DNA from: an uncultured bacterium
GTDB lineage: Bacteria > Actinomycetota > Actinomycetes > S36-B12 > CAIKAW01
Direction: 5' to 3'
DNA length: 64,000 nt
Assembly: GCA_903825575.1 (NCBI GenBank)
Contig: CAIKAW010000031.1
Coordinates: forward strand, 131,469 to 195,468
The position numbers and the translations under genes are program-made. Below the pieces are notes generated by a model, which was not told the origin of the DNA, ran no database searches, and was given only the letters and a program-made list of their open reading frames with translations. Positions 14,788-36,480 of the stretch are shown one piece after another. Position 1 is the stretch's first letter. Every line of letters begins with the position of its first letter.

Positions 14788-15532
14788 GATCGGGTCGCGA
14801 ACTGTGGTAATCATTCCGACCTACAACGAGCGCGAGAACTTGGACATCATCGTGGGACGCCTCCGCATGGCGGTACCCACAGCCGACGTACTTATTGCTG
14901 ATGACAACAGTCCAGATGGCACCGGAGACTTGGCCGATGCCTATGCGGCCAAAGATGACCACGTCCACGTCATGCACAGAGCAGGTAAGCAAGGCCTCGG
15001 AGCGGCCTACCTTGCAGGATTTAGCTGGGCGTTGGATCAAGGCTACGACGTCGTCGTCGAAATGGACGCCGATGGTTCACATCAGCCAGAGCAACTGCCC
15101 GCGATGCTTGCTGCCCTAGCCGACGCTGACCTGGTTCTCGGATCCCGATGGGTCGAAGGTGGCGCGGTCGTGAATTGGCCGAAATCTCGACAGTTCTTGT
15201 CTCGCGGCGGTAACACATACACGCGACTGGCACTCGGAATCCCACTTCGTGATGCCACCGGCGGCTTCCGGGCATTCCGCTCCGATACCTTGCGCACCTT
15301 GAATCTTGCCGAAGTTGAATCGCAGGGATACTGCTTCCAAGTCGACCTAGCTTGGCGAGCAGTGCGCGCAGGGCTTCGGGTTGTTGAAGTGGCGATCACT
15401 TTCGTCGAACGCGAACGCGGTGACTCAAAAATGAGTCGACACATTGTTGTTGAAGCATTGTGGAGGGTGACGGTCTGGGGTTTCGAAGATCGAACTAAGT
15501 GGCTACGCGCAGGCCAAAGAAAGTCAGGCTGA
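14780..15532 (+). CDS. ppm1: Polyprenol-phosphate mannosyltransferase (Ppm1/DPM synthase, GT2)
   Basis: 'VVIIPTYNERENL', 'DDNSPDGT' and 'EMDADGSH' are GT2 DPM-synthase signatures. The lnt-ppm1 pairing is conserved in actinobacteria. Confidence 0.85.
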   Translation: MSEIGSRTVVIIPTYNERENLDIIVGRLRMAVPTADVLIADDNSPDGTGDLADAYAAKDDHVHVMHRAGKQGLGAAYLAGFSWALDQGYDVVVEMDADGSHQPEQLPAMLAALADADLVLGSRWVEGGAVVNWPKSRQFLSRGGNTYTRLALGIPLRDATGGFRAFRSDTLRTLNLAEVESQGYCFQVDLAWRAVRAGLRVVEVAITFVERERGDSKMSRHIVVEALWRVTVWGFEDRTKWLRAGQRKSG

Positions 15533-15880
15533 ATTCCGTTTGCTTGGACGTCCAGTAGTTGCCCGCAGCAGACCTAGCCGCTCACTTAACAATTCCTCGA
15601 GATCCTCAAGGCTGCGACGTTCACGCAGCATGTCCCAGTGACTCCGAGCGGGTTTAGCTGCTGTCACCTCGGGAAAGACACCGTCTCGTAGCTCAGCGGC
15701 TGCCCCGCAACGGCATTCCCAGTGCAAGGGGATATCGGCCTCTTCGGAGAACGGCAGGGAGAACGAGTGACCCTTAGGGCAGTCGTAGAACGTCGCCTGA
15801 CGCGGTGCCAATTCCACATGCGCATCAGACTCGTAGCTCGCGGCTCCGAGGCGGGTACCGCGGAGGGCTCCCTGACTCAT
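15524..15880 (-). CDS. rbpA: RNA polymerase-binding protein RbpA
   Basis: 'RGTRLGAASYESD....FYDCPKGHSFSLPFSEEADIPLHWECRCG...HWDMLRERRS..LEELL' is a clear RbpA signature. The ATG at 15880 gives 118 aa; the track ORF is extended upstream. Confidence 0.9.
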   Translation of the reverse strand: MSQGALRGTRLGAASYESDAHVELAPRQATFYDCPKGHSFSLPFSEEADIPLHWECRCGAAAELRDGVFPEVTAAKPARSHWDMLRERRSLEDLEELLSERLGLLRATTGRPSKRNSA

Positions 15881-16001
15881 GATTGCCCCTCTTCCGGGCG
15901 GATCGCGCCCATTGACTATCTGCTCTAACAAGCCAGACGTCCAGAGTGTTCCCCGAGTTCCCCCGAACAACCTTGGAATCGTCTGAGAAACCGATGAGTG
16001 C

Positions 16002-17450
16002 CTAGGCGCTATGACCTGCGTGCGCCTCACGGATAGCGCGCGGAATGTCCACCCGGGCCAGTAGCAAACCTCCCACGATGAAGAAGAAGACCAGCGCCAA
16101 GATGGCGTCTCGGTACGACCCGGTCACCTGATGCACGAGACCGAAGACCAGGGTTCCTAACCACGAGGTCCCACGTTCGCAGGCCTGATACAACGCGAAA
16201 TACTCGGCCGCCCGGCCAGGGGGAATCAACTGGCTAAATAGGGAACGGGACAGGGCCTGGCTTCCTCCGATGACCGTACCGATCAGCAGCGCCAGAACGA
16301 GGAAGGGAATGACCTGACCAACCGGCAGGAAGTACCCGAGGGCGATAACAACAGTCCAAGCCACAAGGGAACCCAAAATGGTTCGCCAAGCCGAGAACCT
16401 CACCGCTAGTCGACCCAAGAAGATCGCGCCTAGAAAAGCGACGAACTGGACGAGAAGAATCGCCTCGATCAAGACATTCTCGCCTAGCCCGAGCTCTTTG
16501 TTCCCGTAAGCGCTGGCCGCCGAAATCACTGTTTGAATGCCGTCGTTGTAGAACAGGTAGGCGAGCAGAAACAACGCCGTCATCGGGTATCCACGCACGT
16601 GCCGCAAGGTGTCACGCAATTGGCCGAAGCTCGATCGCAGCAGTCCGCCGTCCACGCGAACAACATCGGGAATTTCTCGATCCCGAAGGCCGAACCACGG
16701 AACTATGCTCCAACCAGCCCACCAGAGCCCGCTGAGGAACATGCTGACTCGAACTGCGGCGCTTGTGCTCAAACCAAAGCTCGCGTGTCCTTGGACTACA
16801 ACAAGGGCGACCACTAACAGGAGGCCGCCTCCGAGGTAACCACAGGCCCAGGCCCTTGCCGAGACTCGATCACGCTCTTCAGGCAACGAGACATCGATCA
16901 GAATTCCGTTGTACACAACCAAACTCGAGCCCAAGCCGATGTTGGCTACCAAAATGCACACAGAGCCGATAAGCCAATGTCCGCCGGTTGTCAGGAACAA
17001 GCACATGGTTGCCGCGGCACCAAGCCAGGCAAACCCTAAAAGTAAGTCGCGTTTGCGTTTCGTCCGATCTGCGATAGCCCCGACGACCGGAAGAAGGAAG
17101 GCGCTGACCAGCGTTGAAAGGGTGATGACGTAAAAGATCAAGGACCCGGGGGAGACGGGAATGCCGAGGATATCCAGATTGACGTGGCACGGATTGCTCG
17201 TTGTTCCTGGAGTGCCGCACGCGGCGGTCTCTGCCACAGAAATCAAATACGGCGCCGAGAGCACTCCTGCGGTGACCGTCACAAATCCGTGGTCAGCCCA
17301 CTCGTACATGTACCAGAAGCGCTGCTCGCGTCGTCGCTCCTTCTCATCCACCTGAGGTCCAACTAATGCAATAGCCACGGGCGAATGATGGCGCAATCTG
17401 CGCCCGAAAGCACTGTTAATGAGGCTTCGACCCGCTGATGAAGTCGGCAA
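16002..17450 (-). CDS. MFS transporter (UMF1/Atg22-like family)
   Basis: About 12 predicted TM segments and an N-terminus 'FWYMYEWADHGF' typical of UMF1-type MFS. The true start may be the GTG at 17351, which removes the overlap with the upstream gene. Confidence 0.7.
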   Translation of the reverse strand: MPTSSAGRSLINSAFGRRLRHHSPVAIALVGPQVDEKERRREQRFWYMYEWADHGFVTVTAGVLSAPYLISVAETAACGTPGTTSNPCHVNLDILGIPVSPGSLIFYVITLSTLVSAFLLPVVGAIADRTKRKRDLLLGFAWLGAAATMCLFLTTGGHWLIGSVCILVANIGLGSSLVVYNGILIDVSLPEERDRVSARAWACGYLGGGLLLVVALVVVQGHASFGLSTSAAVRVSMFLSGLWWAGWSIVPWFGLRDREIPDVVRVDGGLLRSSFGQLRDTLRHVRGYPMTALFLLAYLFYNDGIQTVISAASAYGNKELGLGENVLIEAILLVQFVAFLGAIFLGRLAVRFSAWRTILGSLVAWTVVIALGYFLPVGQVIPFLVLALLIGTVIGGSQALSRSLFSQLIPPGRAAEYFALYQACERGTSWLGTLVFGLVHQVTGSYRDAILALVFFFIVGGLLLARVDIPRAIREAHAGHSA

Positions 17451-18674: not shown

Positions 18675-21605
18675 CTACTCGGCGAAGTCCTGCACCGGCG
18701 GGCAGGAACAAACTAGATGCCGATCCCCATACGCACCATCGATCCGACGCACCGGTGCCCAGTACTTGGTCTTCCGTAGCGATTCAACCGGGAAAACGGC
18801 CTCGGCGCGGCTGTATGGGTGTGTCCAGTCGTCGACAACACAGGCGGCGGTATGCGGCGAATTGACCAAGGGGTTATCGCCGGCCTGCCACTCCCCTGTG
18901 GCTACTCGATCAATTTCGGCGCGAATGGCAATCATCGCGTCACAGAACCGATCAAGTTCGGAAAGCGTTTCACTCTCGGTTGGCTCGACCATCAGCGTCC
19001 CGGCCACAGGGAACGACATGGTCGGTGCATGGAATCCGTAATCAATTAATCGCTTCGCAACGTCGTCCACGGTGACGCCCGTGTCGTGCGTGATCCCGCG
19101 CAAGTCCAAAATGCACTCGTGGGCTACCCGCCCTGTTTCGCCCGTGTATAGCACTGGGAAATACGGATTAAGTCGAGCTGCGATGTAGTTGGCAGACAGG
19201 ATCGCCACTTGGGTCGCCTGCAACAATCCCTGGGGTCCCATTAATCGGATGTATGCCCACGGAATAGGCAAAATGCCGGCACTACCCCAAGGCGCGCCGC
19301 TGATCGGCCCTTGGCCACCGTCGCCAAAACCGCGTCCACTTGGCCCAGCCTCCGGGCGCAGCGGGTGAGACGGCAGGAACGGTGCTAGATGCGCGCGAAC
19401 GGCAACCGGTCCGACGCCCGGACCCCCGCCGCCGTGAGGAATACAGAAGGTCTTGTGCAGATTCAGATGCGACACATCGCCGCCAAAACGCCCAGGCCTA
19501 GCCAGCCCAACCAACGCGTTCAGATTTGCGCCGTCCACGTAGACCTGTCCGCCAGCATCATGGACCAAGCCACAAATCCGACCGACGGCAGTTTCGAACA
19601 CGCCATGCGTCGACGGATAGGTGATCATCAAGGCCGCAAGTCGATGGCCTTGTTCGGTGATCTTCGCCTCAAGGTCTGTCACATCGACGTTGCCTTCCTC
19701 GTCGCAACCGACTACCACAACCCGAAGTCCAGCCATAACTGCGCTGGCAGCGTTGGTTCCATGGGCGCTCGACGGAATCAGGCAGACATCTCGCGAAGAG
19801 TCACCGCGAGAATCGTGGTAGGCCCGGATCGCAAGCAACCCAGCGAACTCCCCCTGCGACCCAGCATTCGGCTGCACTGATACAGCGTCATAGCCAGTTA
19901 TCTCCGCCAGCCACTCCTCAAGCTGGGTGATCAGATCGCGGAAACCAGCCGACCGATCAAGGGGCCCGAATGGGTGCAAGTCGGCAAACTCTGGCCACGT
20001 GATTGCCTCCATCTCGGTTGTGGCATTGAGTTTCATGGTGCATGAACCAAGCGGAATCATGGCCCGATCTAGCGCAATATCCAGATCCGCCAGACGCCGC
20101 AGATACCGGAGCATTCCGGTTTCACTGTGGTAGGCGTTGAAGACTTCGTGGGTCAAGAACTCAGACTCACGCCGCAGGCCATCCGGTATCGCCAGCCCCA
20201 CCGCGTCGAGCAACGCCGTGACATCGGGTTCGCCAACAGCTGGTACGACATGAGCGAACGCAGCAAATACCACCTGCAAGTGATGAGCAGTCGTCGTTTC
20301 CGAAGTGTTGACGGCAACTGTGTCTGCATCAACTAACCACAGGTCCACACCGAGCGAGCCCGCCGCGTTAACTACCTCTTGGGCCCGTCCGGCAACACTC
20401 ACACGCACTGTGTCGAAGAAGTTGTCGTGCATCAGGCGGATTCCGCCTGCCCGCAATCCTGTCGCTAAGGCCACTGCGGCCAGATGTGCGTTGGTGGCAA
20501 TCCGGCGCAAACCGTCAGGACCGTGATAGGCCGCATATGAGGAAGCCATGACTGCGAGGAGCACCTGTGCAGTACAGATATTGCTGGTGGCCTTCTCGCG
20601 TCTGATGTGCTGTTCGCGAGTCTGCAGCGCCAATCGATAAGCCGGAGCGCCCTGAGCATCAACGCTTACTCCGACCAGGCGACCGGGCATCGAACGTTCC
20701 AGGCCATCGCGCACCGACATGAATCCGGCATGGGGCCCGCCGAATCCGAACGGGACACCGAAGCGCTGAGCACTGCCGACACAGACGTCAGCGCCAAACT
20801 CCCCCGGCGGCTTCAGCAAAGTCAAGGCAAGCAAATCTGTGGCCACAGAGACCACTGCCCCGCGCTCCTTAGCAGCCGCCAAAACTGCACCTAGATCTGG
20901 AACCAGTCCCGAGGATGTCGGGTAAGAAAGCAAAACTCCAAAGAACTCGCCATCGGGCAGCCCGGCTGCCAAGTCAAATGTTGCAAGTTCGATTCCGAGC
21001 GGGTGGGCTCGGGTGGCGAGTACGGCCAACGTTTGTGGATGAGTGTCGGCCTCAATCAGGAATCGATTGCTCTTCACTTTGCTTGCGCGCCGCGCCAACG
21101 TCATCGCCTCTGCCGCCGCCGTTGGCTCATCCAATAGTGATGCGTTCGCAATTGGAAGACCTGTTAGATCTTCAATCATGGTCTGGAAATTCAGTAAGGC
21201 TTCTAATCTCCCCTGGGAGATCTCAGGCTGATACGGCGTATAAGCGGTGTACCAGGCCGGATTTTCCAAGATGTTCCGCAAAATCACCCCTGGCGTACGG
21301 GTGCCGTGATAGCCCAGCCCAATCATTGAAGTTGTCAGAACGTTGCGGTCCGCAAACGCACGCAATTCAGCTAGCACGGTGGCTTCATCCACGGCCGGCG
21401 GAAGGTTAAGCAAGTCACGCCACCGGATCGATCCGGGGACGACCGCTTCGCTGAGTTCATCTAGGGAAGTGAATCCAATGGCTGTCAGCATCGAAGTGAC
21501 ATCGCTAGGGTCTGGCCCGATGTGGCGATCTGCAAAAACTTCGGGACCAAAATCGGATTGGACGCTAACGCCCTGATTGCTGATATCTGACACTCGTGCT
21601 CCCAC
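18675..21605 (-). CDS. gcvP: Glycine dehydrogenase (decarboxylating), P-protein of the glycine cleavage system
   Basis: Full-length single-chain P-protein, about 970 aa ('FADRHIGP', the PLP-lysine region '[16 protein letters not shown]'). The start is probably the GTG at 21593 (RBS GGGAG) rather than 21605. Confidence 0.95.
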
Positions 21606-21659: not shown

Positions 21660-21850
21660 CGACTCCCATCTGTCCCTCGCGACACCGTCGCGACCTGAGA
21701 GCTTCGGCCGAAGCCTTGCACCGTCGGTGGGGTCTTGCGACCCGCTTTCCAGATCTGCCTGCCCCACCCGGTCCTTTGGCCTGAGAGGTTTCGGGAGTGA
21801 TTGCTCCTTCGGCGCCTACCACTGGCCGTGGCAGGACTCTCCCGTGTGGG
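21660..21850 (-). promoter_or_regulatory. Tandem glycine riboswitch in the gcvP leader
   Basis: The minus strand reads 'CGGGAGAGTCCTGCC...GGCGCCGAAGGAGCAA...CTCTCAGGC..AAAGGACCG' (aptamer 1). It then reads 'CTGGAAAGCGG...CACCGACGGTGCAA..CTCTCAGGT...GGGACAG' (aptamer 2). It lies directly upstream of gcvP. Confidence 0.85.
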
Positions 21851-21877
21851 GTTATCAGCGGGTTTAGTCTACGCCCG

Positions 21878-25471: not shown

Positions 25472-26215
25472 TTAACTAATTTGTAACGGTGGGACGATGC
25501 GAATCTTGCTCAAGCCGCCGGTCCTGAGCAACTCGGCGTACTTGGCTAGGTCCTCGGGAGCAGCTTCGGCCCAACCGTCAGCTGGATGTCTGACCCCGTG
25601 CCGGCGAAATGGGTTCAGCACCACCTGCAACTCGGGGTCCACCCGACTCAACCACGCTCCAGTCCTGCGCAAGAGGTCCGGATCGTCATTGACCCCTCCC
25701 ACAATCAAGAGTCTGACCTCATAGAGAAGCCCAACGCTGGCCAGCAGCTCAATCGAATCCAAAACTTGAGTTACCGGCTTGCCAGTCAGTTCCAGATGCA
25801 ACTGCGGATCAAAAGTCTTTAGGTCAAGCATCGCCCCATCAAGAACCGGAACGAGAGTGCTCCAGACCTCCGGAGTAGTAGCGCCATTGCTATCCACAAA
25901 CCGAGTGAGATCTCGAAGTTCGGGATCTGCCTGCAGGTGCGTGAAAAACTCCGCCAAGAATTCCGGCTGAAATGTTGCTTCCCCGCCCGACACCGTGATA
26001 CCTGAAATAAAGGGCGCACTAGCCCTTACTTCGTCGACCAAATCAATGATCGTCATCGACCGCGCATGGACCGACTGAGCTGCAATCGTCTGCGGGTTAT
26101 GACAGGCCTTGCAATCGAAATTGCACCCTTGAAGAAAGATCGTGGTTCGGTTTCCCGGACCATCAACCCACGAAAACGGAATAACGTCAGCGACTAGCCC
26201 GCGGAGAACTTTCAA
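25472..26215 (-). CDS. Glycyl-radical enzyme activating protein (YjjW-like radical SAM activase)
   Basis: 'SWVDGPGNRTTIFLQGCNFDCKACHNP' (CxxxCxxC) is typical of PFL-AE-type activases. It overlaps the 3' end of the upstream GRE gene. Confidence 0.8.
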   Translation of the reverse strand: MKVLRGLVADVIPFSWVDGPGNRTTIFLQGCNFDCKACHNPQTIAAQSVHARSMTIIDLVDEVRASAPFISGITVSGGEATFQPEFLAEFFTHLQADPELRDLTRFVDSNGATTPEVWSTLVPVLDGAMLDLKTFDPQLHLELTGKPVTQVLDSIELLASVGLLYEVRLLIVGGVNDDPDLLRRTGAWLSRVDPELQVVLNPFRRHGVRHPADGWAEAAPEDLAKYAELLRTGGLSKIRIVPPLQIS

Positions 26216-27737
26216 GACTTACCACCCGCTTCACCGCACGATCGTCCACGTGCGAGAACTCCACCGCCCCGGCGCCTAAGCCAGTGCTGGAATGACGCAC
26301 TCCCTCCGCATGGACTTTCGCGAGATCCGACTTTCGGACCAGGTATCCAGTGATTCGGATGAAGTCGTTGCTGTCCAGATTGAAAGTGAAATCGCGCATC
26401 CCCTGAGCGAAGGCGCCGCGGATGATGTCAACAACAGCATCAGGATTGCGAACAACCGTTTCATCAAAACTAAGGACGTCGCTGATTCCGGCTGCGAAGT
26501 ACTTGTGATGCGGCGCGACGGTCTTCAAGTGGCGAGCAAGACCAGGTTCGGTGCCAACTGGGATCCGCGTACCGGCGGTAACGTCGCGATCAGAATCAAT
26601 ACCAGATTGGGAATGCAGGAAAGCTCGGCCGTCATTGCCTCGGCAATATGGCATCTCGGTCGCCGCAACGAGTTCGGCTACTCGTTCAGTAATGCGAAGG
26701 GCAACGTCGTCTGTTGCCTCGCTATGCCCGTACTTGCCCAACCTCCCGCCGCGTTCTTCCAACAGTTCGGCAGCTTCTGCTAAACCGAAGATCCCAAACA
26801 TGGCCGAGAACCGTTCAAGGCTCAAAAGCCCCTCGGCTACTAGCCAACTGTGGTTGTAGAACCCTGAGTCCTCTACCAAGTATCGAATCCGGCTGGCCAT
26901 CAATTCAGCAGTCAAATCCACAAAATGCGGCAGCGTCGTTGCTAGGAAGGATTCAAAGTCGCCATCATGCGCCAAGACCGCTTCGCGCAGGTTAAGTCGG
27001 ACCAAGGTATGGGACCCGCCACCGACAGGAAGGGAGTTATAGCAGCTAACTGCCGCATACGCTGGCCCCAAATCAGCCACCATCATTGGCTCATTGACGA
27101 AGTGTGGCTGGCCACATTCGAAAACGGTCTCAACTGCATCTCTTAGCAAGTCGTCCGGAGTGCGATCGGGATCAACGTGCAGCGATACGTTCGGGACAAC
27201 CTGCCTGAGCTCGCGTTCCAAGCGCAGCACCAGCCGTGCTAACCGGCTATCGTCTGGACCTAGATTTGTATGGGTAAATGCATCGGGAAACATGCGGTCG
27301 AGCGAAATCCAGAACAACCTCAATTTGCGGTGTAGCTCGTCATCATCGATGTCGGATACGTACGGGGCGAGCAATTTGTCGAAGTCCCCTAGGTAGACCG
27401 GATACCCCGTGATCGAAGGCGTATAGGTATAGGCGATAAGCAAATTTGCGAGCGCGGAATCTAGATCGCCTGCTGGGGCAAGTTCGAGAAACGCCGACCC
27501 GTTGGCCAATACTTTTGAGTACTCCGGAAGCAGATATCGCGGACGATAGGGGGCGTTTCCTTCGTACATATCGCAGATGATGCGCTTATCGAGTGCGGCG
27601 GCGGCGGCCACGGACAGGCTCGGCGCCTCAAGGGCGTTCTCAGCCAACCCCGCCAAGGCTTGTACGCGCTGCCGGTAGGTCAGTGTCGGGTCATTAATGG
27701 TGGCTCGGATTAGGCCCGAGAGCTCTTCATGCTCCAT
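26187..27737 (-). CDS. YjjI-family glycine radical enzyme (DUF3029-like)
   Basis: 516 aa counted from the ATG at 27737; the track ORF is extended to 28046. A C-terminal glycyl-radical-like motif 'FIRITGYLV' has its Gly codon at 26346-26348. It is coupled to an activase gene. Confidence 0.7.
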   Translation of the reverse strand: MEHEELSGLIRATINDPTLTYRQRVQALAGLAENALEAPSLSVAAAAALDKRIICDMYEGNAPYRPRYLLPEYSKVLANGSAFLELAPAGDLDSALANLLIAYTYTPSITGYPVYLGDFDKLLAPYVSDIDDDELHRKLRLFWISLDRMFPDAFTHTNLGPDDSRLARLVLRLERELRQVVPNVSLHVDPDRTPDDLLRDAVETVFECGQPHFVNEPMMVADLGPAYAAVSCYNSLPVGGGSHTLVRLNLREAVLAHDGDFESFLATTLPHFVDLTAELMASRIRYLVEDSGFYNHSWLVAEGLLSLERFSAMFGIFGLAEAAELLEERGGRLGKYGHSEATDDVALRITERVAELVAATEMPYCRGNDGRAFLHSQSGIDSDRDVTAGTRIPVGTEPGLARHLKTVAPHHKYFAAGISDVLSFDETVVRNPDAVVDIIRGAFAQGMRDFTFNLDSNDFIRITGYLVRKSDLAKVHAEGVRHSSTGLGAGAVEFSHVDDRAVKRVVSLESSPRASR

Positions 27738-27881
27738 CCCGCAAGCCTGCCCGCTTCCGACCTTTGCTGCAAGGACCGAGCAGCCCGGATAGAGGGGCCC
27801 TTTACCGCTCGCAGCCAGCCGACGCGCCGTAAACCTACGCCCCCGTAGGTTACGGATCCGTAGGTAGGGCACAATGGCCCT

Positions 27882-29372
27882 ATGCCAGTCGCTGCAGCGC
27901 CCGCCGATCAGCTCCCTGTCGTCATTCAGGGGGGCATGGGAATGGGCGTGTCGGGTTACCGCATCGCACGCTGCGTCGCCCAAGCCGGGGGCCTTGGCGT
28001 TGTATCTGGAGTGGCCACCGACACCCTGCTCGCGCGCCGACTCCAAGACGGTGATGTATCCGGAGATTTGCGCCGGGCCCTAGCCGCTTTCCCCGACCAG
28101 GACCTCGTAGCAGAGGTGCTCGCCAAGTTCTTCCGACCGGAAGGGCGTTCGGGTGCGCCGTATCGGCCAATTCTTCGACTCGACCTAGGGCAGCGTCGGG
28201 CGGCTGTGCAACTCGTGGCTCTCGGTGCCTTTACCGAAGTTTGGCTCGCCAAGGAAGGCCACAACGGACCGATCGGCATCAACCTTCTGGAGAAGATCCA
28301 AACGCATCTGCCGGCGACTTTGGCCGGTGCCATGCTGGCCGGAATCGACGTAGTTTTGGTCGGAGCTGGAATACCCGCCAATTTGCCCAACCTGATCAAT
28401 GGGTTGGCTCGGTGGGAACCAGTGAGTTACCCAGTCGATGTTGCCGAAGCGCCTGCAGACTCAAAGTTCGAGGTCACACTCGACCCAGCGAGTGTTCTTG
28501 GTGCCCCTACCGCCCAGTTGCATCGACCGGTATTCCTGGCCATCGTCGCCTCTCACGTGTTGGCGCAGTACTTGGCTCGCGACCCGCTGACCCGGCCCGA
28601 CGGCTTCGTGGTTGAAGGGCCGGTTGCCGGTGGGCACAATGCGCCGCCGCGCGGCAAACTGACGTTGGACGACGAGGGTGATCCGATCTACGGACCAGCC
28701 GACGATGCCAACACCGAGAAGATGCTGGCAATCGGGCTGCCCTTCTGGCTGGCCGGCGGATACGGCACACCCGAACGTGTTGCGGAGGCGCTGTCCCTCG
28801 GTGCGGCTGGGGTTCAAGTTGGAACGGCGTTCGCACTCTCAAAGGAATCGGGCTTCCGCGGCGATATCCGCACCGCCTTACATAGTCGCCTTGCCGCTGG
28901 CGAACTTCGAGTGAGAACTGATCCGGCGGCAAGCCCAACGGGCTTCCCCTTCAAGGTCGCGAATATCCCTGGCACCGCTGGTCAATTAGATGTTTATGAA
29001 GCACGGATCCGGGAGTGTGATTTGGGCTATCTGCGGCAGCCTTATGTGCGCGAGAACGGAAACGTCAGTTACCGCTGCCCGGCCGAACCGGTCGATGCCT
29101 ATATCCGCAAGGGCGGCGACGAGGCGGCGACCGTGGGCTGCAAATGCTTATGCAATGGCCTAGCCTCCGACATCGGATTGGCTCAAGTGCAAGGCAACGG
29201 CGTACTCGAGCCAGACCTAGTAACACTCGGGGCCGATCTTGTAGGTGCGACAAGATTGCTCGCAACGAATCCTGCCGGCTGGTCGGCTGCCGAAGTAGTT
29301 CGCTGGCTCGACCCAAGTGCTAGGGCGTGCTCAGTTACTAACCGAATCATGGAGTCTGTGGCTGTCGTTTGA
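27882..29372 (+). CDS. Nitronate monooxygenase / 2-nitropropane dioxygenase-like FMN oxidoreductase
   Basis: 'VIQGGMGMGVS...LA.AVA.AGGLGVVSG' and 'GGHNAP' NMO/FabK-like TIM-barrel motifs. At 496 aa it is longer than typical NMOs. Confidence 0.7.
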   Translation: MPVAAAPADQLPVVIQGGMGMGVSGYRIARCVAQAGGLGVVSGVATDTLLARRLQDGDVSGDLRRALAAFPDQDLVAEVLAKFFRPEGRSGAPYRPILRLDLGQRRAAVQLVALGAFTEVWLAKEGHNGPIGINLLEKIQTHLPATLAGAMLAGIDVVLVGAGIPANLPNLINGLARWEPVSYPVDVAEAPADSKFEVTLDPASVLGAPTAQLHRPVFLAIVASHVLAQYLARDPLTRPDGFVVEGPVAGGHNAPPRGKLTLDDEGDPIYGPADDANTEKMLAIGLPFWLAGGYGTPERVAEALSLGAAGVQVGTAFALSKESGFRGDIRTALHSRLAAGELRVRTDPAASPTGFPFKVANIPGTAGQLDVYEARIRECDLGYLRQPYVRENGNVSYRCPAEPVDAYIRKGGDEAATVGCKCLCNGLASDIGLAQVQGNGVLEPDLVTLGADLVGATRLLATNPAGWSAAEVVRWLDPSARACSVTNRIMESVAVV

Positions 29373-29399: not shown

Positions 29400-29645
29400 A
29401 AACACAATTGAACACTGGGTACGAATCTAGGGGAAGCCGGTCAAAATCCGGCGCTGTCCCGCAACCGTGGTTTGGCTAACTGCCAAAGAGTCGGAGCACC
29501 TGGCGTATCTGTTTGGCTCTTACCGTCGCGGTTTACGGGGCAGAGCCCGGATCCTTCGGATCTGCGATCACCTTCGCAAAATTGCAGGGGGCGATTGCGC
29601 TTCGAACCGGCACCTGTTCGGTGGACCCCAAACTTTGGGGATCTA
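29400..29645 (+). promoter_or_regulatory. Cobalamin (B12) riboswitch with a putative SD-sequestering expression platform
   Basis: Core 'AGGGGAAGCCGGTCAAAATCCGGCGCTGTCCCGCAACCGTGG' and a B12-box-like 'AGAGTCGGAGCACCTGGC'. A hairpin CCCCAAA/TTTGGGG at 29626-29640 overlaps the GGGGA Shine-Dalgarno of the ATG at 29646. Confidence 0.85.
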
Positions 29646-30797
29646 ATGCTCGTTTCTCTCGGTCGTTCCAGCGCAATTCGCGGCGTCGCGATAGCTGCGT
29701 CCTTGGCGGTACTCGGCGGGCTTGGTATCGCCCCCGCCGAAGCGCAGGCAAGCCTTACCAACGCAAATAGTGGTCGTCATGGACTTTTCGGTGCCCAAGA
29801 TCCCTCCTACGACGGAGTCTTCAGGCAGGGGTTGAGCATTCTTGGTTTACGGGCAAATCACATTCCTGTGCCCACGGCGGCTGTTAAGTGGCTACTTACG
29901 CAACAGTGTGCAGACGCGGGCTTTCAGGCCTTCCGTCCTTCCATATCAAGTGCCTGCCTCAAATCTGATCCGATCAACTACCGCGGCGAGGACACAAATT
30001 CAACGGCCCTAGCAGTTGCGGCGCTGTCCTACGTGTGGCAGGCAAGCACGACTTCACAGACCGATGCCAGACTTCTCGCGCGCAAGCGTGCGATTGCCTG
30101 GCTTGCGGCGCATCAAAACCCGGACGGCGGCTGGGCTTACTACCCGGGGGGAACTTCCGATGCCAATTCAACGGGTCTGGTCCTTGCCGGATTGTCGGCG
30201 GCGGGCGTCCCATCCGGAACCAGGCACCGACTGAATGGCTCGAACGCCCTGCACTTTCTCGCCTTCGCTCAGTTGCGGTGTTCGGCGACAAGCGCCACGC
30301 GAGGAGGCATTGATTGGCAAGCCGAACGCCCGCTAGTTGCTAATGGCTCGGCAACCGCCCAATCGCTTTGGGGTCTTGCAACCCAAGGGATCGTCGCGCC
30401 CAAAACGCTTGCGTCTGGCACCTGGTCAACAGCATGCGTTTCTGGGCACTGGGGGCCTGCGGTCGGTGTTGCGCAGGCGGCCGACAGTTTTCTAACTCGC
30501 ACAATTCTCGCGCACCACGGCTTCATTCCTTCACCATCCGCCGCGACCATCGACACCACGACCACCGCATTTGCGGTACTGGGACTCATTGCGATGGGTC
30601 ACAGTTCAAGTGCCGTAGTTCAGGCAGTGGCGGCACTAAAACGTGCGACGGCGAAGTTCGTTGTTGATCCGGCTCACCGTGGAGTACCCGGATCGCTGGC
30701 TGTGCTTCTTCTGGTCGCACACGCAAGTGGCTCTAATCCAAGCAGTTTCGGCGGAGTTAATCTGGGCAGCAGACTGCTGGCGACTCTCACACCGTGA
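29646..30797 (+). CDS. Secreted prenyltransferase/squalene-oxidase-repeat (alpha/alpha-toroid) protein
   Basis: Signal peptide 'MLVSLGRSSAIRGVAIAASLAVLGGLGIAPAEAQA'. Repeats such as 'HQNPDGGWAYYPGG' and 'DTNSTALAV/DANSTGLVL' are typical of terpenoid-cyclase-like toroid repeats. It sits directly behind the B12 riboswitch. Confidence 0.7.
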   Translation: MLVSLGRSSAIRGVAIAASLAVLGGLGIAPAEAQASLTNANSGRHGLFGAQDPSYDGVFRQGLSILGLRANHIPVPTAAVKWLLTQQCADAGFQAFRPSISSACLKSDPINYRGEDTNSTALAVAALSYVWQASTTSQTDARLLARKRAIAWLAAHQNPDGGWAYYPGGTSDANSTGLVLAGLSAAGVPSGTRHRLNGSNALHFLAFAQLRCSATSATRGGIDWQAERPLVANGSATAQSLWGLATQGIVAPKTLASGTWSTACVSGHWGPAVGVAQAADSFLTRTILAHHGFIPSPSAATIDTTTTAFAVLGLIAMGHSSSAVVQAVAALKRATAKFVVDPAHRGVPGSLAVLLLVAHASGSNPSSFGGVNLGSRLLATLTP

Positions 30798-31615
30798 GAC
30801 GGACGATCTGCGCGACTGTGCTGGCGGCGCTCATGGGCGTGGTCAGCACAGTCGTAGGTCTGCCTGCTGAAGCCAGCGGCTATCGCTATTGGAACTACTG
30901 GCAAACCTTCGCCAGTGGTGGAACTATGACGTGGCGATTCGCTGCTGCCGGCCCATATTTCACTACCCCTAAGGCCGACCAGTGGGTCGAAGGGTGGCGG
31001 TTCGAAACCTCGGACCCGTTCGGTCCGCTGCCTCCCCCGCCACGGGCCTCGGCTAAATACTCCGACCTCTGTCACGATGCTGTCGTCCCGGGCAAGTACC
31101 GCATTGCCATCGTTGTTGACTTCGGAATCTTGACCGATGTGCCAGCTGGCGATGTTCTGCCCCTCCCAAACCGAATGGTCATCTGTCGCTTGATCTCACC
31201 CGGTACGAATAGTTTCGCTGCACTACAGGACAGCGGTATCGAGCTACGAGCGAATCCGAGCAGCTACATCTGCGGGATTCACGGCTACCCACGAACCGAA
31301 TGCGCCGGCGTCGGGTCGGGCACTCCCTCACCTCCGCCTCCGATCCCAAGCGTCCCAGGCAACTCCGCTGGAGCGCCCACGCCCAACGGGTCCCTTTCTT
31401 CCAGCCCCCTGTCTTCGGTCTCCCCCGCAGCAAGTTTGTCGCCGCTGGCCCCAACACCGACGCCTACCGAATCTGCCAGCGTGGCCCCGACTCCTTTTCG
31501 GCCTACCCCCAATGCCTCACGAATCCAGCCTTTCTCAGCGATTCTGGCCATCCTGGCCCTTGCCGCGCTGGGGTATGCCGCCCGCCGCAGGTACCGTGCC
31601 GGACGCGACGTGTGA
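30794..31615 (+). CDS. Secreted, C-terminally membrane-anchored protein (SCO2322-like), Pro/Ser-rich stalk
   Basis: Signal peptide, 'GYRYWNYW' N-domain, Pro/Ser-rich linker, and a terminal TM followed by 'ARRRYRAGR'. Its start overlaps the stop of the upstream gene. Confidence 0.5.
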   Translation: MRRTICATVLAALMGVVSTVVGLPAEASGYRYWNYWQTFASGGTMTWRFAAAGPYFTTPKADQWVEGWRFETSDPFGPLPPPPRASAKYSDLCHDAVVPGKYRIAIVVDFGILTDVPAGDVLPLPNRMVICRLISPGTNSFAALQDSGIELRANPSSYICGIHGYPRTECAGVGSGTPSPPPPIPSVPGNSAGAPTPNGSLSSSPLSSVSPAASLSPLAPTPTPTESASVAPTPFRPTPNASRIQPFSAILAILALAALGYAARRRYRAGRDV

Positions 31616-31661: not shown

Positions 31662-33557
31662 GTGCCGACACACTCACATCTCATGACACCCGCCCCGTTC
31701 GAGGTGCTTTCGATCGGGCGAGTGGGCGTTGACCTATATCCGACGACCGTTGAAACGGCCTTGGCGGAGGTCCCCGAGTTTGAGAAGTTCCTAGGTGGTT
31801 CGGCAACAAATGTGGCAGTAGCCGCGGCGAGACTTGGTCGCACGAGCGCCATCGTCACGCGAACCGGCGCCGATCCGTTCGGGGAATTTGTTCGCACTCA
31901 ACTTCGAGCCTTCAACGTTTCGGATCGGTTTGTAGGAACCTCCCCCGGCAACCCAACCCCGATCACCTTCTGCGAACTGTTCCCGCCGGACGATTTTCCG
32001 CTTTGGTTCTACCGAAGTGCGGATTCACCAGATCTGCAGATTGCAATTGAAGATCTTGACGTTGCAGCAGTGGCCAGCGCTGGCGTGCTGTGGTGCACCG
32101 CAACTGGGCTCTCAGTGGATCCAAGCCGGTCTGCCCATCACGCTGCCTTTGCCCTGCGCCGGCCAGAGCAATTCACCGTTCTTGATCTGGACTATCGAGC
32201 CGTGTTCTGGGAGTCAGAACAAGCCGCCCGAAATGCAGTCCTAGAGGCCCTACCAAAAGTTTCAGTGGCCATCGGGAATCTTGCTGAGTGCCTCATGGCC
32301 ACCGGCTACGGCGATCCGATCGAAGCCGCGAAGGCACTATTGAACGCCGGGGCGCAGTTGGCTGTCGTAAAACTCGGACCCGATGGTGCCTTGGCGATGT
32401 CAGCGACTGAAACCATTCAAATCCCTGGCCTAAGAGTTCGAGTACTTAATGGCCTCGGCGCAGGTGACGGCTTCGGGGGCGCCCTATGCCACGGCCTGCT
32501 CGCAGGCTGGAAGCTCGCCGAAACTCTGGCCTATGCAAATGCTGCTGGGGCCATCGTTGCCTCGCGGCTCGGGTGTTCGTCGGCCATGCCGACGGCTGCC
32601 GAAGTTGCCACTTTGTTGGACGACCCGCAGGATCCGCGCGGAATGCAGCTGACTTCGGTCGGAAGCCCCACTCGCGCATCGTCGAGCATCGACCTTTCGG
32701 CCCTGCGCGAAATCCGAGCTACCAACCCGCTGCGCATCAAGGAGTTGCACCTGCAGCGAACCAGACGCCCGCTCCTTGCCGGAGACGGTCGACTAATGCT
32801 GGTGGCAGCCGATCATCCGGCACGAGGGTCATTGGGAGTGCGTGACAATCCCCAAGCAATGGCCAACCGCGGCGACCTATTGCGACGGCTAGTCGAAGCT
32901 CTGTCCCGGCCCGGTGTGGATGGAGTAGTAGCTACGGCGGATGTCGTTGACGACCTACTTCTATTGGGGGCGCTCGATAACAAGGTAGTCATCGGCTCAA
33001 TGAATCGTGGTGGCCTGCAGGGGGCAGTCTTCGAGCTTGACGACCGTTTCACTGGATACCAAGCCGCTGGAATCTCGGCCGCGAACTTGGAGGGCGGCAA
33101 GATGCTTTGTCGCGTTGCTTTGGATGACGCAGGAACAGCGAGCACGCTCGTTGCCTGCGGCCAGGCGGTGACTCAGCTCAGCGAATTGGGTTTGCTTGCA
33201 ATGGTTGAGCCGTTCCTATCTCGTCGGGTTGGCAATCGCGTCGAACATGACCTGAGCGCCGCCGGGGTCGCCAAAGCCGTAGCAATCGCTAGCGGATTAG
33301 GCAGCTCGTCGGCCCAAACATGGTTGAAACTCCCAGCTATCGACGACTTGGCCGAAGTGATGGCGGCAACAACGTTGCCTACGCTCCTACTTGGCGGTGA
33401 TCCCACCGGCTCACCCAAGGCGACCTACAATTCGTGGCGCAGATCACTGGCGATCCAAGGTGTGCGGGGCTTGGTTATTGGGCGAGCAGTCCTGTACCCC
33501 CAAGATGGCGATGTTTCTCGAGCTGTCGATATCGCTACTGAACTAGTTCACTCGTGA
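31662..33557 (+). CDS. iolC: Bifunctional 5-dehydro-2-deoxygluconokinase (IolC) / DUF2090 aldolase (IolJ-type)
   Basis: N-terminal PfkB kinase ('GGSATNVAVAAARLG', 'GAGDGFGGAL') fused to a roughly 300-aa class-I-aldolase-like DUF2090 half. It lies upstream of iolB and iolD. Confidence 0.8.
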   Translation: MPTHSHLMTPAPFEVLSIGRVGVDLYPTTVETALAEVPEFEKFLGGSATNVAVAAARLGRTSAIVTRTGADPFGEFVRTQLRAFNVSDRFVGTSPGNPTPITFCELFPPDDFPLWFYRSADSPDLQIAIEDLDVAAVASAGVLWCTATGLSVDPSRSAHHAAFALRRPEQFTVLDLDYRAVFWESEQAARNAVLEALPKVSVAIGNLAECLMATGYGDPIEAAKALLNAGAQLAVVKLGPDGALAMSATETIQIPGLRVRVLNGLGAGDGFGGALCHGLLAGWKLAETLAYANAAGAIVASRLGCSSAMPTAAEVATLLDDPQDPRGMQLTSVGSPTRASSSIDLSALREIRATNPLRIKELHLQRTRRPLLAGDGRLMLVAADHPARGSLGVRDNPQAMANRGDLLRRLVEALSRPGVDGVVATADVVDDLLLLGALDNKVVIGSMNRGGLQGAVFELDDRFTGYQAAGISAANLEGGKMLCRVALDDAGTASTLVACGQAVTQLSELGLLAMVEPFLSRRVGNRVEHDLSAAGVAKAVAIASGLGSSSAQTWLKLPAIDDLAEVMAATTLPTLLLGGDPTGSPKATYNSWRRSLAIQGVRGLVIGRAVLYPQDGDVSRAVDIATELVHS

Positions 33558-33606
33558 TCGAACACCGCTTTAGTGACCGACTTACCCCACAGGATTCGAG
33601 GCATTC

Positions 33607-34500
33607 GTGACACAGTCGAACGAACTCGTGTTGCGCGCTGGCAACCCCGTATTTCGGTCGGGTGTGAGCACTTTGCTCGACATCACTCCGGAAAGCGCCG
33701 GCTGGGGCTGGACAGGCATGAAGGTGTTTGAACTCGAACCGGACGCCACGGTAACAATTGAACTTGTCGATGCCGAGTATCTGGTCCTTCCATTGTCAGG
33801 TTCGGGCGTAGTCCGCAGTGGGGGTACCGAATTCGAACTCGTCGGACGCACCGGGGTATTTGATGCGGTTTCTGATTTCGCCTACGTAGGAAGGGGAACC
33901 AGTGCCACCTTGACTTCGCCCACCGGAGGCAAGTTCGCGGTACCCTCCGCCCACACTCAGCGCCAACTCCCGTTCAGGTACGGGGCAGCATCGGCGGTGT
34001 CGGTCGAACTGCGGGGCGCCGGGACGGCTTCGCGCCAAGTAAATAACTTTTGTACGCCCGAAACTTTTGACGCGGATCGCCTGATTGCTTGCGAAGTAAT
34101 CACACCCGCTGGAAATTGGTCGTCGTTCCCACCGCATAAGCACGATGAGGATCGTCCGGGCGAGTCTGTGCTTGAAGAGATCTACTACTACGAAGTTGCT
34201 GCTGGACCTGCTGGCGAAGGAATTGGGTATCAACGTGTTTATGGGACCGCCGAACGCCCGATAGACGTTCTGGCCGAGGTACGAAGTGGCGACGCCGTCT
34301 TGATTCCTCACGGCTGGCACGGACCATCGATGGCGGTCCCCGGGTACAACCTCTATTACCTAAATGCCATGGCAGGCCCTGGTCTCGAGCGCGCTTGGCG
34401 GATCTGCGACGACCCGGCTCATGCCTGGGTCCGCGAAACCTGGCCTGGGCTCACCATCGATCCAAGACTGCCCATGTACGGCTCCCCCGGGGCGAAATGA
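33607..34500 (+). CDS. iolB: 5-deoxy-glucuronate isomerase (IolB)
   Basis: Cupin protein with 'NWSSFPPHKHDE' and 'EEIYYY' IolB signatures. Confidence 0.85.
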   Translation: MTQSNELVLRAGNPVFRSGVSTLLDITPESAGWGWTGMKVFELEPDATVTIELVDAEYLVLPLSGSGVVRSGGTEFELVGRTGVFDAVSDFAYVGRGTSATLTSPTGGKFAVPSAHTQRQLPFRYGAASAVSVELRGAGTASRQVNNFCTPETFDADRLIACEVITPAGNWSSFPPHKHDEDRPGESVLEEIYYYEVAAGPAGEGIGYQRVYGTAERPIDVLAEVRSGDAVLIPHGWHGPSMAVPGYNLYYLNAMAGPGLERAWRICDDPAHAWVRETWPGLTIDPRLPMYGSPGAK

Positions 34501-34623
34501 TCTAGCCGGTTTGGCCGCAACTGCATAAGTAATGACATATTGACTACCTGACCCATTCTCCGTAATCTGAAGGTGGCCCGATGGGTTAGTGGGCAGCGTC
34601 CAGCGACCTCAAGGGGTGCAGGT

Positions 34624-36480
34624 ATGTCGGGACTGCGGATGACCGTGGCCGAGGCACTTGTGCGCTTCCTTGCTGCCCAAAGGATCGAGACCGAAACTGG
34701 CTCGGAGCCCTATTTCCCGGGCGTCTACGCCATCTTCGGTCACGGCAATGCGTTGAGCCTTGGGGCGGCACTAGCTGACGTCGGCGATGCCTTGCCCACC
34801 CACCGAGGCCAGAACGAGCAGGGAATGGCGCTGGCAGCAGTCGCCTACGCCAAAGCTGCTCATCGTCGTCAATGCATGATTGTCACCACATCAATCGGAC
34901 CTGGTGCCCTGAATGTCGTGACGGCGGCGGGTGTGGCCATGGCCAATAGGTTGCCGCTCCTCGTCCTTTCGGGCGAGACCTTCAATAGCCGCCTGCCTGA
35001 TCCAGTCCTGCAGCAGCTCGAGCATTTTGGCGCTCCAGGAACGACCGCGAACGACGCGTTCAAGGCCGTAGTTCGCTACTGGGATCGCGTCACATCGCCA
35101 ACCCAACTGCTCAGCACGTTGCCACAGGTGATGGCCGCCCTGCTCGACCCCGCAGACTGCGGTCCGGTATTCCTCGCACTCCCCCAGGATGTTCAGGCCA
35201 CAGCTTTCGATTTCCCGGCCGCGTTCTTTGCCCCAACTGTTCACCGGATCCCTAGACCACGGGCCGATACCCAATCGATTGCCGATGCAGTGCAGGCGAT
35301 CCGAGGAGCAAAGCGGCCGTTGTTGATCGCCGGCGGCGGGGTGCACTACTCCCAAGCGCAAGCGGCACTGAGCGCTTTCGCCAATACCTACGGCATTCCG
35401 GTGGTCGAAACTGTTGCAGGCAAGTCGAGTTTGGTGGCCGATGATCCGGCCTGGGCTGGCCCGATCGGCGTCACTGGAGCCGACCCTGCAAATGATTTGG
35501 CCGCCGAAGCCGATGTCGTAATTGCGGTCGGAACCCGGCTGATGGATTTCACGACTGGTTCTTGGACCGTATTCCAAAACCCGCAGCTAACGGTCGTGGC
35601 GGTCAACGCCGCGCGCTTTGACGCGACAAAGCGCCGTTCCCTGCCAGTTGTCGGCGATGCGAGAGAAACTCTCGCCGAATTGACTGCGGGCCTTGCGGAC
35701 TGGACCGGGCCGGTCGACTGGCGCGATCGTGGAACCGCTGCAGCGGCACAAATCCGAGCGGACATTGCCGGCCGGACTGCGCCGACCCCAGGGCAGGTCG
35801 CGTCCTACGCGCAGGTCGTCGGGGTCGTGCACGACGTTGCGCTACCGCAGGACTACGTCCTAACAGCCGCAGGTGGCCTGCCAGGTGAATTGAATGTCAA
35901 CTGGCTAAGCAAGTCGGTGGGTAGCTTCGACTGCGAGTACGGGTTCTCCTGTATGGGTTATGAGGTATCCGGCGCTTGGGGTGCCGCCAAACAGGTTGCC
36001 ACCCGCGGAACCGACGCAACGGTATTCGCAATGACCGGCGACGGGTCGTACTTGATGCTGAATTCAGACATCTACTCGGCCGTCCTCCACCACGACCACA
36101 TGGTCCTTGTGGTTTGCGACAACGGTGGATACGCGGTGATCGAGCGGCTCCAACTCGGACATGGCGGACTCTCATTTCGCACCATGCTCGCTGAATTGCC
36201 AGGTTCAAGTCCTCCACGGGTAGATTTCGCCGCCCACGCCGCCGCGCTCGGCGCACAGGCCGTTCAAGTCAAAGATCTGACCGCCTTAAGAGACGCACTC
36301 GCTACCGCTCGCGCCACTTCGGGCGTCCACGTCATTGTGATTCCAGTGGCCGCGCAAACGTGGACCGAGGGTGGCGCGTTCTGGGAGGTTGGGGTCCCCG
36401 AAATCTCAAATCGATCTGAAGTGGACGAAGCCCGCGAACAATTGTTGAAAGGCAAACTTAGCCAACGGACGGTCTGGTAG
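34624..36480 (+). CDS. iolD: 3D-(3,5/4)-trihydroxycyclohexane-1,2-dione acylhydrolase (IolD, ThDP-dependent)
   Basis: Three-domain ThDP enzyme architecture ('GDGSYLMLNSD' ThDP motif). I prefer the ATG at 34624 with RBS AAGGGG over the GTG at 34573. Confidence 0.85.
   Translation: MSGLRMTVAEALVRFLAAQRIETETGSEPYFPGVYAIFGHGNALSLGAALADVGDALPTHRGQNEQGMALAAVAYAKAAHRRQCMIVTTSIGPGALNVVTAAGVAMANRLPLLVLSGETFNSRLPDPVLQQLEHFGAPGTTANDAFKAVVRYWDRVTSPTQLLSTLPQVMAALLDPADCGPVFLALPQDVQATAFDFPAAFFAPTVHRIPRPRADTQSIADAVQAIRGAKRPLLIAGGGVHYSQAQAALSAFANTYGIPVVETVAGKSSLVADDPAWAGPIGVTGADPANDLAAEADVVIAVGTRLMDFTTGSWTVFQNPQLTVVAVNAARFDATKRRSLPVVGDARETLAELTAGLADWTGPVDWRDRGTAAAAQIRADIAGRTAPTPGQVASYAQVVGVVHDVALPQDYVLTAAGGLPGELNVNWLSKSVGSFDCEYGFSCMGYEVSGAWGAAKQVATRGTDATVFAMTGDGSYLMLNSDIYSAVLHHDHMVLVVCDNGGYAVIERLQLGHGGLSFRTMLAELPGSSPPRVDFAAHAAALGAQAVQVKDLTALRDALATARATSGVHVIVIPVAAQTWTEGGAFWEVGVPEISNRSEVDEAREQLLKGKLSQRTVW

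Follow-up and report, generated by a model that had tools for sequence, protein, structure and literature searches.

An uncultured actinomycete (GTDB lineage Bacteria; Actinomycetota; Actinomycetes; S36-B12; CAIKAW01) carries a cobalamin (B12) riboswitch followed, on the same strand, by two genes for exported proteins, an alpha/alpha-toroid protein (gene 1) and a membrane-anchored protein of the SCO2322 family (gene 2). The locus lies in a 64-kb stretch of DNA, here called the window (GenBank assembly GCA_903825575.1, contig CAIKAW010000031.1, positions 131,469 to 195,468). It is probably, with a likelihood of roughly 0.6, a B12-repressed unit whose two extracytoplasmic products act in the acquisition of corrinoids (cobalamin or cobinamide). 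This role is the better grounded part of the proposal, since the pair, or the SCO2322 gene alone, normally heads a riboswitch-controlled operon for a dedicated, group I energy-coupling factor (ECF) importer, often with the genes cobU, cobT and cobS. That the two proteins themselves bind corrinoids is a more tentative idea, to which we give slightly less than an even chance. The genomic context was assessed in 80 actinobacterial loci, retrieved from relatives found with an SCO2322-domain profile (A1) in at least 285 species-level genomes.

The riboswitch upstream of the pair belongs, by its best match among the Rfam families, to the adenosylcobalamin (AdoCbl) family RF01482. The match scores 52.7 bits, only slightly above the gathering score of 50, and covers model positions 1-149 (E = 8.2e-7 in a search of the complete window with all 4227 families, 5.8e-9 in a local search). 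Despite this small margin the call is supported, because 67 related loci have homologous elements, in every case immediately upstream of the operon and in its orientation. The aptamer starts 34 nt after the stop codon of the preceding gene, a member of the nitronate-monooxygenase family (27882-29372, +), and its last nucleotide is 96 nt from the gene 1 ATG (29646). Searches with the window aptamer itself (nhmmer) returned similar sequence in 63 loci, all on the plus strand and all just 5' of the first gene. A covariance model (R1), built from an alignment (A2) of 33 riboswitch elements from the window and 32 other loci, gave 68 matches in 1.48 Mb of locus sequence, one per source and all on the plus strand, the window aptamer scoring 135.8 bits. 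Every R1 match is positioned directly 5' of the toroid gene, or of the SCO2322 gene where the toroid gene is absent, and none occurs elsewhere in these 1.48 Mb. The A2 alignment contains 43 invariant columns, including GGTNNNANNCC...CTG.CCCGCA.CCGT and AG.CGG...CC, and compensatory double changes in 13 of its 25 consensus base pairs. Curated Rfam models (RF01482, RF01689 or RF00174) reach gathering level in 12 of the 27 loci tested, including Kitasatospora loci that are weak by nhmmer, and two riboswitch-bearing loci, L087 and L088, add to the 68 found with R1. In all, a riboswitch was found in 59 of the 75 genome loci with enough upstream sequence, and as judged by sequence the window riboswitch is an ordinary member of the cobalamin clan (CL00101).

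Six loci from Actinacidiphila and Streptomyces (L015, L019, L021, L029, L030 and L034) contain the full toroid-SCO2322-ECF operon with no riboswitch found by R1 or at Rfam gathering level, and the same holds for L041, which contains the toroid-SCO2322 pair only; these loci are either regulated differently or have lost the regulation. The possibility that the Actinacidiphila-type loci carry divergent riboswitches was considered and ruled out, no Rfam match being obtained. Most loci also share a conserved motif in the leader, CACAACTNCATCCAC, just before the riboswitch's first paired region (A2 columns 1-20; ACACAATTGAACAC in the window, 29402-29416). This motif may belong to the RNA itself, or serve as an element of the promoter or start site.

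The genes that follow the pair in other actinobacteria carry most of the argument for its role. Neighbouring genes were labelled with profiles seeded from locus L005, an example of the operon with Pfam-labelled ECF genes (its Pfam content is on record), together with domain coordinates, and loci were counted according to flank length. Of 70 loci with a downstream flank of at least 2.5 kb, 63 have ECF genes directly after the SCO2322 gene, and all three ECF components, namely a CbiQ-type EcfT, a fused double ATPase and an S-component, are present in 58 of 66 (at least 4.5 kb). The genes cobU, cobT or cobS lie nearby in half of the ECF-bearing loci, the only ones included in this count (28 of 56, at least 8 kb). 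A toroid gene immediately precedes the SCO2322 gene in 57 of 73 loci. Two loci with independent gene calls and precomputed Pfam domains give the same picture: L087 reads toroid, SCO2322, CbiQ, ABC-ABC, S-component, CobU, CobT and CobS, and L088 (Streptomyces) reads riboswitch, toroid, SCO2322, CbiQ, ABC-ABC and ECF_trnsprt. Three loci from Nanopelagicales metagenome-assembled genomes (L013, L031 and L084) have the order riboswitch, toroid, SCO2322, ECF and cobUTS. All named organisms among the 80 loci are Actinomycetota, including Nanopelagicales, Streptomyces, Kitasatospora, Actinacidiphila, Nocardioides, Marmoricola, Terrabacter, Intrasporangiaceae, Motilibacteraceae and Micrococcales, and an exhaustive profile search found 1,664 clusters of the SCO2322 family at 50% identity.

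The linked ATPase matches ECF_ATPase models. The linked S-component matches only the ECF_trnsprt family and, with a weak score, FolT; none of the solved S-component structures, CbrT included, is related to it by sequence. This S-component is therefore a vitamin-type S-component of undescribed specificity, neither CbiM/NikM nor CbrT. Several features of individual operons were recorded alongside. In L005 (14022-15557) and L087 (14543-15940), CobU carries an N-terminal metallo-beta-lactamase-fold fusion (Lactamase_B_2 + CobU, 465-511 aa), which is an unusual architecture for adenosylcobinamide kinase/guanylyltransferase. In L004 (ENA contig_2339, 10395-16837), the sequence of the ECF and cob genes is scattered across several reading frames, and none of the genes annotated on the other strand in the deposited record has a Pfam match; the breaks are probably indel errors of a long-read assembly rather than true pseudogenes. 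In L088, from Streptomyces sp. NPDC020096, a ramC/ramS cluster for a SapB-type lanthipeptide morphogen (1499-4268, -) is present a few kb upstream of the operon, a proximity that is probably coincidental.

The window itself lacks the ECF module, and its 64 kb contain no EcfT, S-component, BtuF, BtuC or BtuD, or cobU, cobT or cobS gene. A hidden ECF ATPase was considered in the only double ABC ATPase of the window (51952-53652, -), which proved to be an ABC-F ribosomal-protection-type protein. A first-pass annotation, made from the sequence of the window, had noted this lack of a transporter and treated it as the defining trait of the locus. The observation holds for the window, but the arrangement is a minority one among the loci. 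The comparison with homologous pairs that the annotation had suggested places them behind B12 riboswitches and next to ECF importers at the frequencies given above.

A riboswitch and pair without an adjacent transporter nevertheless recur, in the clade of the window (L001-L003) and in L022, L071 and L057. In L057, cobS and cobT (and, by the first-pass labelling of neighbours, cobU) diverge from the same intergenic region. The genes 3' of the transporter-less pairs are unrelated (acyltransferase_3, HAD hydrolase, phosphoesterase and VTT families). The window proteins keep all the invariant residues of both families, and are therefore unlike decaying remnants. The recurrence of such pairs suggests a B12-related role that does not depend on co-transcription with the ECF module. 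The importer in the corresponding genomes would be either unlinked or of another type.

Between aptamer and gene 1, the expression platform of the window contains a hairpin that encloses the Shine-Dalgarno (SD) sequence GGGGA (29637-29641) in its 3' arm, 4 nt before the ATG. In minimum-free-energy and partition-function folds, the mean probability that the SD is unpaired is 0.2. Transcription termination as the switch was ruled out, no terminator-like site being found from the aptamer to the start codon. Aptamer, SD hairpin and start position are kept in the nearest relatives, L001 and L002, whose toroid proteins are about 61-62% identical to that of the window, and the GTG start called in these two loci aligns with the ATG at 29646, supporting this codon over upstream TTG codons. 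An analogous SD hairpin is present in L057. As a rule for the whole family, SD sequestration holds only in part, the median probability of an unpaired SD being 0.39 over 23 loci, with values below 0.3 in nine of them. Many loci (including L025, L033, L043, L014, L007, L036, L048, L022 and L067) have instead a CGCUCACC-N(1-4)-(A)AAGGA motif 10-25 nt before the toroid start codon, which is absent from the window clade with its CCCC/GGGG SD hairpin. Thus, two platform designs stand behind one aptamer family. The GTG start of gene 2 overlaps the stop codon of gene 1 by 4 nt (GTGA), and the two genes are therefore translationally coupled. The first-pass annotation had proposed a B12 riboswitch, an SD hairpin before the ATG and a two-gene unit for exported proteins with an anchored, SCO2322-like second product. 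All three are borne out, with RF01482 rather than RF00174 as the best riboswitch family.

Gene 1 encodes a protein with a Sec-type signal peptide (cleavage at ...APAEA|QA), and its Pfam matches to the squalene-hopene-cyclase/prenyltransferase toroids (PF13243, 33.5 bits; PF00432; PF13249) lie just above the thresholds. It also matches the NCBIfam equivalog NF053823, 'SCO2321 family membrane protein', at 212.2 bits, under the cut-off of 300. This match spans profile positions 1-354 of 405, the last 50 or so positions being missing in gene 1, and the missing C-terminal part is presumably the membrane anchor. An AlphaFold2 (AF2) model of 349 residues, computed with a 120-sequence alignment, is a single toroid of 12 helices (predicted local distance difference test (pLDDT) 94.4; predicted template-modelling score (pTM) 0.93). 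Its best Foldseek match in the PDB is squalene-hopene cyclase (SHC; 1sqc, E 2e-7, template-modelling score (TM-score) 0.52), and the 50 matches listed also include drimenyl diphosphate synthase, the beta subunits of Rab geranylgeranyltransferase and farnesyltransferase, and the complement C3d thioester-containing domain (TED). A profile of the toroid family run against PDB sequences retrieves the same proteins, with E 2.6e-27 for SHC.

The equivalent of the cyclase DxDD motif is lost in the toroid family, the DVDDTA of SHC being aligned to EDTNSTA in gene 1. Among 120 toroid relatives the motif most often reads PDTNST (75), EDTNST (13) or a close variant, and all the common variants conform to D[T/S]NST, in which Asp occupies the first motif position and Asn the third. 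A second copy, SDANST, is found one repeat further on. Because the general-acid motif of the cyclases is lost (Asp to Asn), the toroid is taken as a non-catalytic binding scaffold of the terpenoid-cyclase/TED type, and from sequence we infer that it is best read as a binding module or scaffold rather than an enzyme. An N-terminal hydrophobic signal is present in 115 of the 119 closest toroid homologs, and an anchor of its own (a C-terminal transmembrane (TM) segment or LPxTG motif) in only about 19. The gene 1 protein does not end in a hydrophobic segment and basic tail, and neither do about 100 of these homologs.

The idea that the toroid is a homolog of the transcobalamin alpha domain was followed up and ruled out. 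The 50 listed Foldseek matches include no cobalamin carrier, the profile search of the PDB gives none with E <= 10, and the Pfam family Cobalamin_bind (PF01122) touches one of 120 family members, at E 0.18. The first-pass annotation had based its proposal of corrinoid scavenging on the alpha-barrel of transcobalamin and intrinsic factor. The acquisition role itself is grounded in genomic context, but this structural argument finds no support. The earlier functional guess points the right way, for a reason that failed testing, and the ECF/cobUTS context was missed.

Gene 2 matches the NCBIfam family NF040672 (SCO2322_fam) over residues 25-171, above the cut-off of 85 bits, and its homologs carry the Pfam domain PF28005. 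Proteins of this family consist of a signal peptide, a domain of about 140 aa with conserved W, R, D, G and P residues and three to four Cys, a low-complexity stalk, a TM segment and a basic tail; the gene 2 protein keeps every invariant column of the domain alignment (A3). The AF2 model of the ectodomain is mostly beta (pLDDT 92.8, pTM 0.88) and has neither a fold match (best Foldseek E about 4, TM-score < 0.2) nor a sequence match in the PDB, so that, as modelled, SCO2322 is structurally without precedent. An N-terminal hydrophobic signal is present in 126 of 128 SCO2322 homologs and a C-terminal TM segment with a basic tail in 124, the stalk having a median length of about 40 residues. Taken with the corresponding counts for the toroid family, these indicate a common design in which an untethered secreted toroid is paired with a stalked, membrane-tethered SCO2322 partner.

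One metagenomic family member, P0132 (338 aa), is a natural circular permutation, in which the VVDFG...CAIGGYP...C half precedes the YRYWSYW...VEGWRF half. The motif order of P0132 looked like the DUF4430/transcobalamin beta-domain pattern, and the resulting idea of a 'split transcobalamin' was rejected at the sensitivity of the tools used: a profile (A5) of 11 SCO2322 sequences rebuilt in permuted order gave only chance nanobody matches (E > 0.1) and no DUF4430 match against PDB sequences and Pfam, and Foldseek on the native-order model gave no match to the transcobalamin beta domain. Two toroid-SCO2322 fusions were considered as Rosetta-stone evidence and set aside. In P0378 (730 aa), the SCO2322 signal peptide is internal and follows Arg/Gly-rich sequence typical of out-of-frame translation of high-GC DNA, so that this fusion is probably the product of a frameshift or of a wrong gene call; P0304 is truncated and doubtful.

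Table 1. The riboswitch, the two genes that it precedes, and an AdoCbl-dependent enzyme elsewhere in the window (positions in the window unless given as residues)
Feature	Position	Strand	Remarks
AdoCbl-type cobalamin riboswitch aptamer, including the 3' P13-like hairpin	29406..29550	+	RF01482 full-model match
Expression platform	29551..29645	+	UUCG-type hairpin right after the aptamer; SD hairpin 29624-29643; no intrinsic terminator
Gene 1, alpha/alpha-toroid protein, 383 aa	29646..30797	+	signal peptide about residues 1-34; no C-terminal anchor; syntenic counterpart of SCO2321
Gene 2, SCO2322-family protein, 273 aa	30794..31615	+	NF040672 96.3 bits; C-terminal TM anchor
Gene 2 signal peptide	residues 1-27	+	Sec-type
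Gene 2 beta-rich ectodomain	residues about 28-173 (30875-31312)	+	followed by a Pro/Ser/Thr-rich stalk
Gene 2 TM anchor	residues about 246-263 (31529-31582)	+	then basic tail RRRYRAGRDV
D-lysine 5,6-aminomutase alpha (PF09043, 780 bits) and B12-binding beta subunit	10187-12789	+	AdoCbl-dependent enzyme

The lysine 5,6-aminomutase of the window, already recognised in the first-pass annotation, implies a demand for B12. Directly 3' of the pair is a myo-inositol catabolism cluster (31662-36480, +), which starts with an iolC kinase gene fused to a Cgl0159-like aldolase and continues with two further open reading frames (ORFs; 33607-34500 and 34573-36480). No terminator-like site separates gene 2 from iolC, so that read-through is possible. 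The iolC fusion is not a conserved neighbour, since a convergent peptidase gene takes its place in L001. Upstream, a YjjI-like glycyl-radical enzyme gene (26187-28046, -) is divergent from the nitronate-monooxygenase-family gene; the longest-ORF calls of the two overlap by about 165 nt, and at least one of their starts must therefore be over-extended. The synteny of the YjjI-like gene, a radical-SAM activase gene, the nitronate-monooxygenase-family gene, the riboswitch and the pair is common to the window and L001. The window also contains a tandem glycine riboswitch (RF00504, 66.1 + 37.7 bits; 21668-21854, -) upstream of a 976-aa ORF (18675-21605, -), presumably the glycine dehydrogenase gene gcvP, and a gene (53725-58107, -) whose 1460-aa product contains two fibronectin type III domains along with 12 DUF285 repeats, and which adjoins the ABC-F ATPase gene.

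In the mechanism proposed, the folded aptamer would leave the SD sequestered when AdoCbl is plentiful, and the pair would not be made, with Rho-dependent polarity possibly reinforcing the repression. When B12 is scarce, the pair would be made and exported, and the free toroid and the tethered SCO2322 ectodomain would pick up corrinoid in the wall or on the surface of the cell. The captured corrinoid would then be passed to an importer, which in the genome of the window would necessarily be encoded elsewhere. The toroid and the SCO2322 ectodomain may together be an extracellular system for corrinoid capture that has so far gone unrecognised in Gram-positive Actinomycetota, a proposal whose odds fall a little short of even. 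Equally tentative is the division of labour between the two proteins, with the toroid as a free or loosely held 'corrinophore' and SCO2322 as a stalked surface receptor feeding the ECF or an unlinked importer.

Several observations weigh against the proposed role. The two proteins are putative corrinoid binders, and neither resembles any known B12-binding protein in fold or sequence in the Foldseek, PDB profile and Pfam searches. The window and its nearest relatives have no adjacent transporter, so that the hand-over step cannot be seen there. The toroid gene is absent in about 16 of 73 loci, and the toroid is thus dispensable for the system. About 16 of 75 operons, mainly from Actinacidiphila with some from Streptomyces, have no riboswitch detectable by R1 or Rfam. 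The SD hairpin of the window is local, and forms in simple folds whatever the state of the aptamer. We know of no ECF transporter that requires extracytoplasmic partners. Streptomyces species reportedly make B12 de novo, and a role in cobalt supply is possible there.

The alternatives differ mainly in what the exported proteins would do outside the cell. The pair may belong to the B12 regulon without binding corrinoids. It would then either serve the importer as a structural or assembly factor, which might hold the S-component or make a way across the cell wall, or act outside the cell as an enzyme on corrinoid conjugates that are yet to be taken up. The operon linkage and the control by riboswitch fit this explanation equally, the alpha/alpha-toroid fold also occurs in hydrolases such as MmpH, and about a fifth of the loci dispense with the toroid. 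However, a pure assembly factor is hard to square with the riboswitch-controlled pairs that have no adjacent transporter (the window clade, L022, L071 and L057), and an enzyme with the loss from the toroid of the catalytic motif of its nearest enzyme relatives, and with Pfam scans in which no glycoside-hydrolase family signature was reported. On balance, we regard a non-binding role as unlikely. Cobalt is a further possibility: the ECF module would import Co2+ for B12 synthesis, and the exported pair, which includes four conserved Cys in SCO2322, would capture or chaperone the metal outside the cell. The operon is present in Streptomyces and Kitasatospora, which reportedly make B12. The linked ATPase has cbiO-type models among its matches, and invariant Cys residues occur in SCO2322. 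Cobalt transporters are commonly under B12 riboswitches (PMC2667541, PMC3766115). However, the S-component matches ECF_trnsprt/FolT, with no CbiM/NikM match reported and no CbiN-like partner seen; half of the operons run on into cobU-cobT-cobS, which use imported cobinamide; and disulfides are a simpler explanation for conserved Cys in exported proteins. The hosts also include acI-type actinobacteria, which lack de novo B12 synthesis (PMC5301498). Together, these points make a cobalt function distinctly improbable.

There is very little likelihood that the pair is a B12-independent substitute, or has no link to B12 at all, its association with the riboswitch being a by-product of neighbouring genes. 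Riboswitch-controlled B12-independent isozymes (metE, nrdEF) are a known class (PMC3766115), and no other B12 uptake gene is adjacent in the window. Against this, both proteins are exported and lack catalytic signatures, the genes co-occur with importer and salvage genes, and the riboswitch-gene arrangement is kept across orders of Actinomycetota, always directly 5' and on the same strand. The acquisition of corrinoids thus remains the favoured role, and the systems most closely related to it are compared below.

The nearest counterpart of the locus is the SCO2321-SCO2325-type operon of Streptomyces coelicolor. Gene 2 passes the SCO2322 cut-off and gene 1 is the syntenic toroid partner, but the window has the first two genes only, and its toroid falls short of the SCO2321 family cut-off and lacks the C-terminal part of the profile. 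As the first-pass annotation had supposed, the gene pair is uncharacterised, in that no publication on either gene was found. Literature searches on SCO2321, SCO2322 and SCO2323 found only one unrelated mention, although the ECF operon might still figure in earlier comparative ECF work, and this system did not appear in searches that linked B12 riboswitches and ECF transporters to prenyltransferases or to surface accessory proteins. The families NF053823, NF040672 and PF28005 carry no functional assignment. A riboswitch-controlled actinobacterial ECF locus was proposed in 2017 as a cobalamin transporter in B12 auxotrophs (PMC5301498). It is the same kind of riboswitch-controlled locus as that of the window, but the accessible part of that report describes the ECF module alone and does not mention exported proteins, whereas the window has exported proteins and no module.

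ECF-CbrT of Lactobacillus delbrueckii is a characterised ECF-type importer of cobalamin and cobinamide (PMC5997447). The transporter linked to the pair in other actinobacteria most likely belongs to the same mechanistic class, its S-component differing in having no sequence match to CbrT or other solved S-components. To our knowledge, ECF-CbrT has no extracytoplasmic accessory proteins. The closest functional analogy to the pair is provided by BtuG and BtuH of Bacteroides, which, in the portions of the sources available, are surface lipoproteins from B12 transport loci, once of unknown function, that capture cobamides outside the cell and feed the transporter (PMC8941943, PMC13616437). Their cobamide binding is shown experimentally, whereas binding by the toroid and SCO2322 is deduced. 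They also belong to another phylum and envelope type, as outer-membrane lipoproteins serving the TonB-dependent BtuB, and their folds are unrelated to those of the pair.

Transcobalamin, intrinsic factor and haptocorrin (PF01122) share a general architecture with the pair, an extracellular alpha/alpha toroid and a separate beta-rich module, but have no specific similarity to the toroid, and SCO2322 is unlike the beta domain of the carriers even after circular permutation. The best fold and sequence matches of the toroid are the class II terpene cyclases and prenyltransferase beta subunits (E 2.6e-27 for SHC, TM-score about 0.5). By contrast with the gene 1 product, a single secreted toroid with D[T/S]NST in place of DxDD, class II cyclases have two fused toroid domains and are cytoplasmic or membrane-associated. 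The likeness to prenyltransferase beta subunits is one of fold only (TM-score about 0.45-0.5), and no alpha-subunit gene adjoins gene 1.

The acquisition of B12 by Gram-positive bacteria is poorly understood, and the finding of transporters for B12 and its precursors in many genomes has been said to remain 'an open problem' (PMC6593275). Riboswitch-controlled acquisition of B12 is known, and what is new here is an uncharacterised and widespread extracytoplasmic component. The SCO2322 family is large and tied to B12 riboswitches and an ECF importer, and its hosts include abundant freshwater lineages of the Nanopelagicales type as well as Streptomyces. Both ectodomains are small and confidently predicted, so that the question of binding is directly testable. 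If the pair binds corrinoids, ECF importers can use an extracytoplasmic capture stage, which they were supposed not to need, and the two proteins would represent a new B12-binding fold, with one or two new structural classes. Such a capture stage would also help to explain how B12-auxotrophic freshwater actinobacteria compete for a scarce vitamin.

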